From: a virus
Taxonomy: Duplodnaviria > Heunggongvirae > Uroviricota > Caudoviricetes
Strand: one strand, 5' to 3'
Virus record (IMG/VR): IMGVR_UViG_2778261069_000008
Length of the DNA: 25,564 nucleotides
The position numbers were made by a program, and so were the translations under genes. Below are positions 162 through 6,422 of this stretch, one piece after another. The notes below the pieces were generated by a model that was not told the DNA's origin, searched no databases, and saw only the letters and a program-made list of their open reading frames with translations. Every line of letters begins with the position of its first letter. Position 1 is the first letter of the stretch.

Positions 162-629
162 TCACGGTATACACTGGGTACGGATATATTCCTGTGCCCC
201 TTCCAGTTGCTTTTGCATTGTCATCAGCCGTTCTCTGAGGGTGAAATAATCCCGCTCAGCGGTGTCTGCCAGTCGGGGGCTGGTTGCATTATCCACGCGG
301 GTGGGGCCGGTGGCCTCACGCACGGCTGCGGAGCAACTGGCATTGACCCGCAGGCGCTTACGACCAGCGGCAACATCAGCGCGCAGAGTTTCATTTTCAG
401 CTTTCGCATTGGCTAATTCTCTCAAGTACTTTGCATCTAGCGCAGCAACATCACGCTGACGCTGCTGCATGTCAGCGATGGTGGCGATCGCCTGCTTCAG
501 CTCACTGACTTTTTTATCACGCTGTTCTTTGTAGGCGATGGCATTATCACGGTAATGATTGACCGCCAACGACAGGCAGACGATGATGCAGATAACCAGT
601 GTGGAGATAATCGCGGTAACTCTGCTCAT
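162..629 (-). CDS. Rz: Rz i-spanin (inner-membrane spanin subunit)
   Basis: Translation [20 protein letters not shown]...[24 protein letters not shown] closely matches lambda Rz as I recall it; N-terminal TM then coiled coil; start moved to the internal Met matching the Rz N-terminus; 4-nt overlap with upstream endolysin. Confidence 0.9.
224..409 (-). CDS. Rz1: Rz1 o-spanin lipoprotein, embedded in the +1 frame of Rz
   Basis: 61-aa ORF wholly inside Rz: [22 protein letters not shown]... with lipobox-like VSAC and proline-rich [19 protein letters not shown], matching lambda Rz1. Confidence 0.85.
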
Positions 630-1123
630 TGTTGCCCCCATAAACAGACTTCACGCTCAATCTCACGGCGAGTCATCAGTCCTTTCCATTGCTTACCGCC
701 AGCGTATGTCCAGCGCCGTAGCTGATCACATGCGCCTTTGATATCGCCCTGGTTTATTTTGCGAAGAAGCGTCGATGTTCTGAAATTACCAGCACCCACG
801 TTGTAAACGAACGAGTAAAGAGCGCCGCGCGTTGTTTCCGGTATATCGACTTTGATGTACGGGTTAATTTGTCTGGCGACCGTGGCAAGGTCTTTATTCA
901 GGAGGGCTTTGCATTCTGCTTCGGTATACGTTTTACCGGGAATGATGTCTTTTCCGGTGTGTCCGTGACATACAGTCCATACGCCAACGATATCTTTGTA
1001 TGGTATGTAGCTGACACCTTCCAGACCATCGTCACCACTCGGACCAGTGATGAGCACAGACGCTATGGCAACAGCCCCACCACCAATAGCAGCAGCAACA
1101 GCCTTGCGTAATGATGGCGACAT
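626..1123 (-). CDS. R: SAR endolysin (phage-21 R-type lysozyme with signal-anchor-release domain)
   Basis: 165 aa; N-terminal Gly/Ala-rich weakly hydrophobic SAR segment ([20 protein letters not shown]) followed by a lysozyme domain; near-identical to my recollection of R21; placed between holin and Rz. Confidence 0.9.
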
Positions 1124-1338: not shown

Positions 1339-1741
1339 AACCCCACCTCGCAGATGCGGGTGCTGTGTAATGGAAACAAAAAAAGCCACCAGCGGCCCGC
1401 CCCCCATCAAAGGCACCCGAAGATGCCTTTTGTATAGCGTTATCTGATGTGATGTGCGCCGGGCGTGACGCGGATGTGAAAAAGGCCCGCCGTAGCGAGC
1501 CTCAATACAAAAAACTGATGATTATCCCGATAGCTTCTGATCAGCAATGAAGCACATTAACATTCTCTTAATATACTTAGCTGTTTCTTCGTATCGCTCA
1601 ACCTCTTCTCCTCTGGAAACATATCGCTCAGCCCGTTTATCGCTTCTACCGTTGGATCGCGATATGCAGACTTTTATCAGGTTGTCGCAATACTCCATAG
1701 TTATATATGCCGGAATAAAAAAAACCTGCCGGAGCAGACCT

Positions 1742-1769
1742 CAAAAAAAGCCAGCTTTGGGTAGCTGGC
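1742..1769 (-). terminator. Rho-independent terminator-like hairpin (minus-strand orientation)
   Basis: Plus strand has an A-run followed by GCCAGCTTTGGGTAGCTGGC (7-bp stem); on the minus strand this reads hairpin then U-run. Confidence 0.4.
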
Positions 1770-2052
1770 ATAAATGAAAACAATGACGTTCGAGATTACT
1801 CGTCACAGCGAGATTATCTTCACACAGTCAGCATGCGCTTTTGTTGCGAGCGCCACAACTGAAAACGGTTATTTTCAGATTTCGTTATTCTCTGCACCAA
1901 CGGGAGCCCCCACTATACAGAATGTACATAGTCACACACAGAACACTAAAGAGACAAACAACACAAAAGACAACAAACAGAAACATTACGATACAAAATC
2001 GTAACAATCAGTCATATATGATAACCCAAACCCAACAAACAAGAGGTTGTTT

Positions 2053-2616
2053 ATGTGTAAATGGAATAGCGTAAATCTAAAAATCATACTTTGGGCAACA
2101 CTGGTCGGTGGCGCGATCAGCTCTCTGGTGAAATCAGGAACTGAAGCTAACATGCCCCCAAGAATGGCCGGAGAAATTTCTCCACCAGCAATGAATATCG
2201 ACGCCTGGTTGGGTTTTCTGGGAATAAATTCACACTCGCTGGATTACATTTACCAGGGAGTAACAATTCCCGGAGCTGTTATGCTCTATCATTGGCTTTT
2301 TAGTTTCATTTTTGCCTTTGTATACATATACCTGTCTGTTTTTATTCCACGAGTCCGCATGTGGTATGGGGCTGTATATGGAATTCTTATTACATTAGTC
2401 ATGCATGGTATTTTAATACCCGCGCTGGGCTTCAGATTTCCCGCGTATCTTCCCGGCCATGAAAGAGGGTGGCTATGGAATCTAAACGGCTATGAATTCT
2501 GGAGCGAACTGATTGGACATATATGCTGGTCTGTTTCAATTGAAATATCCTTTATTGCCATTCTGGCAATCTTCTCCAGACCAATTTGTGGTAAATGGAC
2601 GGCGAATAAAAACTAA
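2053..2616 (+). CDS. Inner-membrane protein moron, opposite in orientation to the late operon (tentatively YagU/DUF1440-like)
   Basis: ATG at 2053 preceded by AAGAGG (2041-2046); 187 aa with about four hydrophobic helices; motifs VKSGTEANMPPR and SELIGHICWSVSIE resemble my recollection of YagU; sits between the tRNA cluster and the holin. Confidence 0.55.
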   Translation: MCKWNSVNLKIILWATLVGGAISSLVKSGTEANMPPRMAGEISPPAMNIDAWLGFLGINSHSLDYIYQGVTIPGAVMLYHWLFSFIFAFVYIYLSVFIPRVRMWYGAVYGILITLVMHGILIPALGFRFPAYLPGHERGWLWNLNGYEFWSELIGHICWSVSIEISFIAILAIFSRPICGKWTANKN

Positions 2617-2779
2617 CCATCTCAAATAACATAACCAACTGGTTAGGAACAAAGCAGACTCTAACCGGTTGGCTCCTTAAATCCTATCTCCCTGAAAGGT
2701 GGAGAGTGGATATCAGCCCCGTCAACAGCCCAATACCTCTAACAAAACGGGACTCAAAAGGAAATATGCAGATAAATAC

Positions 2780-2854
<75 letters not shown>

Positions 2855-2857
2855 ATA

Positions 2858-2933
<76 letters not shown>

Positions 2934-2935
2934 AC

Positions 2936-3012
2936 TGGACCGCCACCGGGGACTCGAACCTCGCACACTCAACTTAAAGGGTTGACGCTCTTTCCTGATG
3001 AGCTAGTGGCGG
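2936..3012 (-). tRNA. Atypical tRNA-like gene (anticodon loop CCUUUAA, apparent anticodon UUU with C at position 33)
   Basis: Reverse complement CCGCCACTAGCTCATCAGGAAAGAGCGTCAACCCTTTAAGTTGAGTGTGCGAGGTTCGAGTCCCCGGTGGCGGTCCA; 7-bp acceptor, D-arm with GG, T-loop TTCGAGT, CCA end, but C33 instead of the universal U33 and an A-C mispair in the T-stem. Confidence 0.5.
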
Positions 3013-3013
3013 T

Positions 3014-3089
3014 TGGTGGCCCTTGCTGGATTTGAACCAGCGACCTGGCGATTATGAGTCGCTCGCTCTCACCACTGAGCTAAAGGGCC
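3014..3089 (-). tRNA. tRNA-Ile2-like (anticodon CAU; ileX/ileZ-type, could be annotated Met)
   Basis: Reverse complement GGCCCTTTAGCTCAGTGGTGAGAGCGAGCGACTCATAATCGCCAGGTCGCTGGTTCAAATCCAGCAAGGGCCACCA; loop CUCAUAA; strongly resembles E. coli tRNA-Ile2 as recalled. Confidence 0.8.
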
Positions 3090-3208
3090 GGGTGCAGGAT
3101 AATAACGTTACGAAATCAATGTTGCAAGCATTCAAAAATCACCTGATTAAAAATCACCCTTACTTCCTCCACCAGCGCATTCACCATGTCTATCCGAGAT
3201 AAGTGGCA

Positions 3209-3233
3209 CAAAAAAACCCGCTTGTGGGCGGGT
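3209..3233 (-). terminator. tR'-like rho-independent terminator downstream of the late promoter
   Basis: On the minus strand CCCGCCCACAAGCGGG hairpin followed by a 7-U run; lies about 60 nt downstream of the candidate pR' and upstream of the tRNAs and lysis genes. Confidence 0.6.
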
Positions 3234-3287
3234 TTTGTTTGCTTTTGCCATCACGTACAAAATCGGCAAAATATCAGATTTGCATGA

Positions 3288-3316
3288 AATATATGCCTTT
3301 CAATCTACTTTTGCAA
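3288..3316 (-). promoter_or_regulatory. Candidate late promoter pR' (sigma-70 type) overlapping the 3' end of the Q-like gene
   Basis: Minus strand TTGCAA - 17 nt - TATATT; position just after Q and before the terminator mirrors the lambda pR'/qut/tR' arrangement. Confidence 0.4.
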
Positions 3317-3995
3317 CACTTTGCTTTGAAAATGCCACCTTTTGTTTTGAACGTGTTCTCATTACAAACAATAAAGCCTCACTATCCAGTCGGTAAAAAA
3401 TGTGTTTCATTGCAACCCAGTGACGAGTAAATGTTTTGGACCAGTTTTTAGTTGTCACTCCCGCCAGTAATGCCAGCTCCTGGTATTCATAACCTTCCCC
3501 ACCAAAAAGTTCTGCTTTTACTGCCTGCGCCGCCAGCCAGATTAATTTTTTCAGGCGTTCCTGCGTTTTCCCTGCAATTTTTCTGGTACCGGATTGAGTA
3601 TTAAATTCATTCCACGCCCACTGTGTTATCGCGATCTGATATTCCCAACAAATATTCCCGCTGTAACACCACAACAACCAGGCTTTATGATGTTCTTCAA
3701 GAGACAGAACAGCCCGCCGCCACGATGATGTCGAAAACTCAACCGGACTGACCAGAGGAATTGACGTCCCCTTCGCCAGTGATTGTTTTCCCGGGATTGG
3801 TGGATTATCCCGCGTTATCATTTTTCCAGTCACCTCATCCCGGTACCGGATTTTTTTACGCCTGTAACGCCCTGTATCGAACATGGCATTCTCCTGCCAG
3901 GCTTCAAGCTGACCTTTTGTTGCCCCACTCAAATCAGCGGTGGCGATAATGAGCTGCTCACGCACAAACTGTAAATACTGGCTATTCATGCGCAC
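3300..3995 (-). CDS. Putative late-gene antiterminator Q
   Basis: 231-aa ORF immediately downstream of rusA and upstream of a pR'/tR'-like unit, tRNAs and lysis genes; assigned mainly by position and size; no clear CxxC zinc-finger pair seen. Confidence 0.55.
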   Translation of the reverse strand: MRMNSQYLQFVREQLIIATADLSGATKGQLEAWQENAMFDTGRYRRKKIRYRDEVTGKMITRDNPPIPGKQSLAKGTSIPLVSPVEFSTSSWRRAVLSLEEHHKAWLLWCYSGNICWEYQIAITQWAWNEFNTQSGTRKIAGKTQERLKKLIWLAAQAVKAELFGGEGYEYQELALLAGVTTKNWSKTFTRHWVAMKHIFYRLDSEALLFVMRTRSKQKVAFSKQSVAKVD

Positions 3996-6010: not shown

Positions 6011-6422
6011 AGCCTGCTTCTCCTTGCCTTTCGGCACGTAAGAGGCTAACCTACATGTGTCTAGCATGAAATTGGCCTCAGATTAATGTTAAGCGTCTTG
6101 CAGGACGCGTAATGTTAACTGGGGCTTTTCTCTATCTGCCGTTGGTGTTCATGCCCGAGGCAGATAGCCTCAAGCACCCACAGCCATTCTACTTAACTAC
6201 CGTTACCTCGCCAATATGAAATCAGTCAGAAAGGCGATCCATAAGAACAACAGCAAGGCAATAAATTGCCATTACAGCAGCAATAGCCAGCGCACATTTC
6301 AGAACCAGCACAATGACCTCCCACATTTGACGTACACGTGCATGATTCAATATGTGGCAACCTCCTCCTTGCTTCAATGTAAAATCAAGTATTGTTGTAT
6401 AACTATTTAACCAACTCCCTAT

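Follow-up and report, generated by a model that had tools for sequence, protein, structure and literature searches.

The viral DNA of IMG/VR record IMGVR_UViG_2778261069_000008 (Caudoviricetes; 25,564 nucleotides, the whole of which we refer to as the window) raises the question of what a membrane-protein gene is doing between the tRNA genes and the lysis genes of a lambdoid prophage, on the strand opposite to theirs. The gene in question occupies positions 2053-2616 of the plus strand. It is an already annotated and ordinary kind of cargo, a membrane-protein moron in the classic lambdoid slot, and two features place it slightly above the routine: DUF1440 genes, to which it belongs by profile match, have been captured at this slot repeatedly, and it is preceded by a CA-rich tract that is specific to its lineage. 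The reading that we favor, and consider reasonably probable, is that of a cargo gene of a prophage at tRNA-Ser/mtfA in a host resembling Escherichia albertii, which lies antisense to the late operon and would benefit the lysogen, with tolerance of acid or envelope stress as the likeliest benefit. The cassette and its parts are the following.

1892-2779, no strand assigned: inserted cassette of about 0.89 kb, comprising upstream tract, coding sequence, 3' hairpin and spacer, delimited by the borders of homology with related prophages
about 1933-2046 (1933-2040 before the Shine-Dalgarno sequence), plus strand: CA-rich, G-poor tract of about 114 bp upstream of the gene, a compositional extreme
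1986-2004, no strand assigned: small hairpin TTACGAT-ACAAA-ATCGTAA, from the centroid structure of the minus-strand fold
2041-2046, plus strand: Shine-Dalgarno sequence AAGAGG, 6 nt before the ATG at 2053, as read from the sequence; invariant in 10 of 10 alleles
2053-2616, plus strand: coding sequence for a 187-residue short-form inner-membrane protein of the DUF1440/YagU family (Pfam, RefSeq, hydropathy, AlphaFold2)
2635-2672, plus strand: 3' hairpin with a 13-bp stem and a 12-nt loop, 19 nt past the stop codon

In the range under study, 2053-2616 is the sole sizeable open reading frame (ORF) on the plus strand, and the phage-like genes around it all lie on the minus strand, leaving the cargo gene antisense to the late operon. 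The opposite-strand gene that an earlier reading of the bare letters (hereafter the original prediction) had placed between tRNAs and holin is thus real. Its frame is open from 2047, and the ATG at 2053 was taken as the start, in agreement with the N-termini of homologues. Pfam profile PF07274 (DUF1440) matches the product over positions 2-135 of 135 with E 8e-38 and 130 bits against a cut-off of 34.7, bearing out the DUF1440/YagU assignment for which a profile hidden Markov model search had been proposed, and its RefSeq entry, WP_024246368.1, is already named 'YagU family protein'. The length falls within the class of about 180-205 residues and the four transmembrane helices of the family are present: hydropathy gives four hydrophobic segments, and the AlphaFold2 model has membrane helices at residues 6-28, 75-95, 103-124 and 146-174 together with a short loop helix at 44-56 (a moderate model with a predicted local distance difference test score, pLDDT, of 75.5; the helices score high and the first loop low). 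As judged from profile, hydropathy and model, the gene encodes an inner-membrane protein with four helices that belongs to the DUF1440/YagU family, as had been foreseen.

A family alignment of 32 sequences has 55 invariant columns, and the window protein agrees with every one of them; they include His80, His118, His156, Glu152 and Glu164 as well as long motifs in both predicted periplasmic loops. Across the 32 homologues the three histidines, S162 and E164 are invariant and I163 is nearly so; H80, H118, H156 and S162-I163-E164 also line up with YagU of E. coli K-12, where they belong to helices 2-4 and the SIE motif to helix 4. The positive-inside rule suggests an N-in/C-in topology, which would put both conserved loops and the cluster of histidines and glutamates at the periplasmic face. 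Note that structure comparison of the AlphaFold2 model yielded no meaningful match among PDB or viral structures.

Related phages define the borders of the insertion. To the left, homology with the moron-less prophage L008 stops at 1891, and to the right, homology with phage vB_EcoM-606R7 and prophage L009 begins where tRNA-Gly ends, at 2777-2778. The Q gene and the tRNA array are shared by phage vB_EcoM-606R7, at 98% identity as far as the final base of tRNA-Gly; beyond it this phage has about 300 bp of unrelated sequence and then the holin, with no cargo gene. In L008 the homologues of window 1714-1891 and 2934-3400 are only about 50 bp apart, and L009 holds a different insert of 1.3 kb at the slot. 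Because the site is empty or otherwise filled in related phages, the gene is, on this comparison, a moron, that is, a horizontally acquired cargo gene of a lambdoid prophage. The GC content of the cassette is 0.43, compared with 0.46-0.54 for the holin, lysozyme, Rz, Q and DUF968 genes. The position downstream of PR' is the moron site of lambdoid prophages and also holds stx (Tree et al. 2014, PMC4104026), and the original prediction had recognized it correctly: Q/PR' and the tRNAs lie upstream, the lysis genes downstream. In the first 4 kb of the window the minus strand carries the late-control and lysis functions of a lambdoid prophage, with these elements (dG, folding free energy).

3300-3995, minus strand: antiterminator Q (PF06323, E 1e-91), the upstream edge of the slot
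3213-3240, minus strand: tR'-like terminator after Q (fold dG -19, z -3.4)
2780-3089, minus strand: phage tRNA array with a CAT anticodon, Lys-UUU, Thr-UGU and Gly-UCC (ARAGORN, Rfam, RefSeq)
1721-1769, minus strand: two tandem intrinsic terminators (terminator scan, fold); the backbone at 1714-1891 is homologous to L008
1123-1338, minus strand: S21-type holin, the first lysis gene (PF04971, E 2e-35), the downstream edge of the slot
626-1123, minus strand: lysozyme of the lysis cassette
162-641, minus strand: Rz (Rz/Rz1) of the lysis cassette

Genes of the same family are found in this slot in other phages. In lambdoid prophages of Klebsiella a true YagU gene, with 91% identity to K-12, is located between Q and holin on the strand of the late genes, and Q is directly upstream in 49 of the 62 IMG/VR loci with a YagU gene of this type; the Klebsiella phage protein is PHROG 25162, listed as of unknown function. 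In Providencia-type prophages (IMG/VR L128-L130) a short form that shares 65-66% identity with the window protein lies upstream of the holin and starts 80-95 bp after the stop codon of a PF03589-type Q (L128 3113-4543, L129 3123-4546, L077). The species representative of Providencia alcalifaciens (L077) shows this same arrangement of Q and short form, and in Morganella there is a Q remnant. Judged from these gene orders, DUF1440 genes of two subfamilies have entered the slot in at least three phage lineages, namely here, in Klebsiella and in Providencia. As the Providencia-type gene follows so closely behind Q, it would be the first gene of the late transcript or lie just upstream of it, and its expression logic would be opposite to that of the window copy. 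The presence of two subfamilies in the slot identifies an uncharacterized family as a cargo that phages take up repeatedly, and the strains concerned are natural gain-of-function material for finding its role. We also observed that in Klebsiella phage ST13-OXA48phi12.4 (L031 5669-5872) the small RNA (sRNA) STnc100 is matched by Rfam over its full length, with 82 bits, downstream of the YagU gene; its position 3' of yagU suggests that a whole chromosomal block of yagU plus sRNA was captured.

The relation of the window protein to K-12 YagU is a distant one. Pairwise alignment of the two gives 30% identity with 37 gap positions, and a segment of about 24 residues of the first periplasmic loop, present in K-12 YagU, is missing. 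On the strength of this alignment the window protein is not an orthologue of K-12 YagU and belongs to a distinct short-form subfamily. This subfamily, of about 183 residues, shows 63-81% identity across gamma-, beta- and alpha-proteobacteria and is found mostly in host-associated genera (Serratia, Erwinia, Yersinia, Vibrio, Photobacterium, Gilliamella, Neisseria, Wohlfahrtiimonas and Paracoccus). It is mostly chromosomal, with 78 of 80 species-representative loci free of any phage marker tested; the Photobacterium gene is on a plasmid-like contig, and the Cedecea copy adjoins an insertion sequence. Rfam revealed no riboswitch upstream of the homologues, the M-box found by the Klebsiella michiganensis copy belonging to the divergent mgtE.

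The exact protein occurs on 592 public contigs, mostly of E. albertii and labelled E. albertii or 'MULTISPECIES Escherichia'. In addition, 601 blocks of assemblies list it, and these include over 20 complete genomes, 4.7-4.9 Mb in size. Of 5426 complete E. coli genomes, 2 carry the gene. The coding sequence is 100% identical to that of prophage L001. Compared with allele L002 it has five synonymous and two non-synonymous codon changes, and the 120 nt upstream are 87.5% identical. Among close alleles, four sites vary in the 564-nt coding sequence against eight in the 161 nt upstream. Since the coding sequence is far better kept than its flanks and the changes are mostly synonymous, the comparison of alleles shows purifying selection on the gene.

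The sequence that precedes the gene stands out by its composition. When the 25.5 kb are scanned in 111-nt segments, whose A+C content averages 0.51, the tract at 1933-2046 ranks first in A+C (0.80, z 4.8) and is also the most G-poor, with a G content of 0.08. The original prediction had described a CA-rich leader of about 130 bp, within which it quoted a 32-mer that we locate at 1954-1985; the tract itself is real and the compositional extreme of the window, but its length is about 114 bp. Within it, positions 1942-1979 form an imperfect tandem duplication of 18 nt. For the 120 nt before the gene the A+C content is 0.75, compared with an average of 0.50 +/- 0.06 and a maximum of 0.66 before 79 homologues. 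A BLAST search with the tract found no match outside its own prophage lineage, no exact match was present in species-representative genomes, and the IMG/VR matches were copies of the same prophage only; by these searches the tract is unique to this prophage lineage. It differs at nine positions in allele L002. Out of 14 substitutions relative to the nearest relative (counted before the divergence near 6300), five fall within 1988-2028, all of them from G/C to A/T in the window. The base T2002 creates an in-frame TAA (2002-2004) that closes a 280-residue extended ORF of some public assemblies. This 'long' ORF through the tract (Logan assemblies, P0001) was rejected as coding in view of that stop codon and of upstream indels in L002. 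An open frame through the tract carries little weight, as open frames are expected in T-poor sequence.

From the opposite orientation the original prediction had deduced that the gene has a promoter of its own, and the scans do not bear this out. A consensus scan of the plus strand upstream of the gene yielded no sigma-70 promoter, the best score of a sigma-70 position weight matrix on the plus strand of 1700-2060 was 6.6 bits against a median best of 7.7 bits for equal-sized pieces of the window, and on both strands the combination of consensus scan and matrix gave nothing above background. The sole conserved -10-like hexamer, TATGAT at 2017-2022, is paired with a poor -35 element. A CpxR box of the kind expected for K-12 yagU (GTAAA-N5-GTAAA, up to two mismatches) was likewise absent from 1700-2052. 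Expression in the lysogen, and the idea of the CA tract as a transcribed 'leader', are inferences of the original prediction and are not established.

At the other end of the gene an inverted repeat had been noted, and it is present; at 2635-2672 it is, however, short and nearly perfect, not long and imperfect. As plus-strand RNA its stem contains a single G-U pair and folds with a dG of -21.2 kcal/mol (z -3.4), compared with z -0.85 for the minus strand. The hairpin has no U-tract (its tail reads CUCCUUAAAU), and for this reason it is not a canonical intrinsic terminator; the terminator scan calls it on neither strand. The stem is identical in ten alleles, the only departures being those of L002 in the loop and the closing pair, so that covariation speaks neither for nor against it. 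The hairpin probably acts as a barrier, or stabilizes the mRNA 3' end, where the gene and the tRNA array converge.

The course of events that we propose starts from a cassette of about 0.89 kb between tRNA array and holin, antisense to the Q-dependent late transcript. Because of this orientation PR' and Q cannot express the gene. Expression, if any, would occur in the lysogen, from a non-consensus and probably activator-dependent promoter, and upon induction antiterminated late transcription would cross the gene head-on. The 3' hairpin would end or protect the mRNA, limit read-through in both directions and shield the gene from the tRNA genes that converge on it. If K-12 YagU is a guide, the lysogen may gain tolerance of external acid or envelope stress. 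A K-12 yagU mutant survives pH 2 at 19%, compared with 70% for its parent, a three-fold loss (PMC1626474), the gene is among those most strongly induced by external acid (PMC2270276), and it is a direct target of CpxR (PMC7657598). If the window gene is expressed, the prophage would add a periplasm-facing membrane protein of a family that in K-12 is associated with the Cpx response and with surviving acidity like that of the stomach, and if the proposed benefit is true, this would be a plausible colonization aid for an emerging enteric pathogen, the prophage being of E. albertii or E. coli.

Several observations weigh against this proposal. No consensus sigma-70 promoter and no CpxR box precede the gene, the hairpin that follows it lacks the U-tract of a terminator, and among the homologues we found no conserved gene neighbourhood and no constant partner. 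Transfer of function from K-12 YagU is weak, since identity is only 30% and the loop segment of about 24 residues is missing; the acid resistance expected in the original prediction was borrowed from this protein of a different subfamily. We nevertheless favor a benefit to the lysogen under acid or envelope stress, with low confidence in the physiological detail.

The alternative that survives best is that of a silent passenger, a cassette that is unexpressed or neutral in the lysogen and kept since the slot tolerates insertions. It would account for the failure to recognize a plus-strand promoter, for the hot spot of substitutions at 1988-2028 just upstream of the gene (the five of 14 mentioned above) and for the rarity of the gene in complete E. 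coli genomes. Against it stand the far better conservation of the coding sequence relative to its flanks with mostly synonymous change, the integrity of all residues that are invariant in the family, the occurrence of the exact protein on hundreds of contigs, and the capture of DUF1440 at least three times in the same slot. We regard a silent passenger as unlikely.

A second alternative is a function directed at phages, such as the exclusion of superinfecting phages, defence, or an influence on lysis exerted at the inner membrane. Small inner-membrane proteins are frequent as exclusion factors, the gene always adjoins the lysis cassette, and the Klebsiella and Providencia copies are co-directional and right behind Q, where late transcription would express them. 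The window gene, however, is antisense to the late operon. None of the PADLOC defence models matched the window protein at E up to 0.01, and the PHROG family carries no functional annotation. The prevalence of loci without phage markers and the conservation across alpha-, beta- and gamma-proteobacteria point to a cellular function. We rate a phage-directed role as a little less likely again than a mere passenger.

The third alternative assigns the function to RNA. The CA tract would be a 5' untranslated region that binds Hfq or GcvB, as a target, a translational enhancer or an AgvB-like sponge, or else, on the late strand, a GU-rich mimic of GcvB R1 with a conserved hairpin. Its extreme and lineage-specific composition agrees with such a role, as does the occurrence of AgvB-type sRNAs in the same slot of O157 prophages (PMC4104026). 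A 10-nt match to GcvB R1 (AAACAACACA) lies in the tract, and the density of the Hfq motif ARN4m1 is five times the window average, which is high, not extreme. The accessibility-corrected pairing of the tract with GcvB R1 amounts to -11.6 kcal/mol, against -18.1 for dppA, -16.7 for gltI and -14.1 for oppA; the same model gives -6 to -9 kcal/mol for other DUF1440 leaders, and the score of the tract is equalled or beaten by 6.0% of 480 genomic windows (6th percentile). An exact CACAACA does not occur in the tract, Rfam had no hit there, and the lack of a promoter holds for both strands.

In the hairpin at 1986-2004 the pair 1988:2002 varies among alleles and on the minus strand remains 100% paired (GU:5, AU:1, GC:1), but the covariation test was not significant and no better than for shuffles. 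On the plus strand, a fold that pairs the tract with the start-codon region has z -2.9 for the window sequence, against -0.8 for allele L115, and the nine differences in L002 also count against a conserved RNA. An anti-sRNA of the AgvB/AsxR type was considered and rejected, as the 42-nt 3' module of these RNAs (AGTATCTCATGC..TTGCCCGAACCCAYTCGGGC, from the supplement of PMC4104026) has no match with up to three mismatches in the whole window. A Rho-loading (rut) site or Hfq ARN site was not upheld either, the C/G ratio of the tract not being among the top windows. With marginal GcvB pairing, no 3' module, no promoter and no significant covariation, an RNA module is improbable. If it were true, carriage of the prophage would rewire the control of amino-acid and peptide transport; the CA-rich tract would gain importance only as a proven regulatory RNA.

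Some observations concern the surroundings of the cassette. The tandem terminators at 1721-1769 form a strong pair upstream of the holin and are also present in prophages without the cargo gene; as they lie on the late strand, late transcription must pass them by means of Q antitermination. Just left of the cassette border, at 1860-1878, the shared backbone contains the perfect palindrome CTGAAAA-N6-TTTTCAG. Relative to L008 there is a second small insert at 1519-1713, with a 58-residue ORF (1522-1698, minus strand) that has no match in Pfam, NCBIfam, PHROG or PADLOC. Allele L002, in which the cargo gene is present, has at this neighbouring position a split AraC-family regulator gene instead. 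A link between the cargo gene and this regulator was rejected, as the latter belongs to a separate insert, past backbone that is shared with moron-less phages.

On the other side of the cassette, a promoter-like TTGCAA-17-TATTAT is found on the minus strand just upstream of the first tRNA (3099-3127), and TTGCAA-17-TATATT, on the same strand, overlaps the 3' end of Q (within 3207-3316) and is probably PR'. The short RNA from PR' to tR' (3207-3291) gives sub-threshold Rfam matches to the Salmonella prophage sRNAs isrK and isrJ; otherwise the Rfam scan found tRNAs only. The tRNA with the CAT anticodon is assigned to Met by ARAGORN and to Ile by RefSeq. The cargo gene makes ample use of codons that the adjacent phage tRNAs read, with ATA for 6 of 23 Ile, GGA for 7 of 17 Gly, ACA for 3 of 5 Thr and AAA for 5 of 5 Lys. 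As the same array is present in a phage without the cargo gene, the tRNAs and the gene were not acquired together.

In the region 17817-18973 the prophage ends at a tRNA-Ser adjoining mtfA. Among the 5426 complete E. coli genomes, 5306 have an mtfA that shares about 80% identity with that of the window. Because of this limited likeness to E. coli and of the cargo copies labelled E. albertii, the host is probably E. albertii and not ordinary E. coli, and the two 'E. coli' genomes with the locus may be mislabelled. Past a tRNA-Asn (18898-18973), the stretch 19000-23000 has a second integrase-bearing island, 85-91% identical to islands of some E. coli genomes.

With respect to known systems, K-12 YagU (b0287) shares with the window protein the Pfam family, the four-helix layout, the histidines of helices 2 to 4 and the helix-4 SIE motif, but it is chromosomal, acid-induced and bound by CpxR, whereas the window gene is 30% identical, lacks the loop segment and has no CpxR box. 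The bor gene of phage lambda and nmpC of DLP12 are independently expressed late-region extras, and nmpC, like stx, sits in the slot between Q and the lysis genes. All three resemble the window gene as dispensable late-region genes that differ among related phages; they belong to other product families and have demonstrated promoters and phenotypes, while the window gene is known from sequence. The anti-sRNAs AgvB and AsxR have in common with the CA-rich tract the moron slot, the orientation antisense to the late transcript, a C/A-rich composition and complementarity to GcvB R1. They are, however, free RNAs of 51-60 nt that end in the 42-nt terminator module, in contrast to a tract of about 110 nt that is fused before a coding sequence and has neither the module nor CACAACA.

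The Klebsiella prophages (ST13-OXA48phi12.4, ST405-OXA48phi1.3) resemble the window in having a DUF1440 gene between Q and holin; theirs is co-directional with the late genes and accompanied by an STnc100-like sRNA, whereas the window gene, 30% identical, is on the opposite strand. Prophages of the Providencia/Moellerella type are likewise co-directional, with a PF03589-type Q, without the CA-rich tract and on another phage backbone, and what they share with the window is the short-form subfamily itself, adjoining Q and upstream of the holin.

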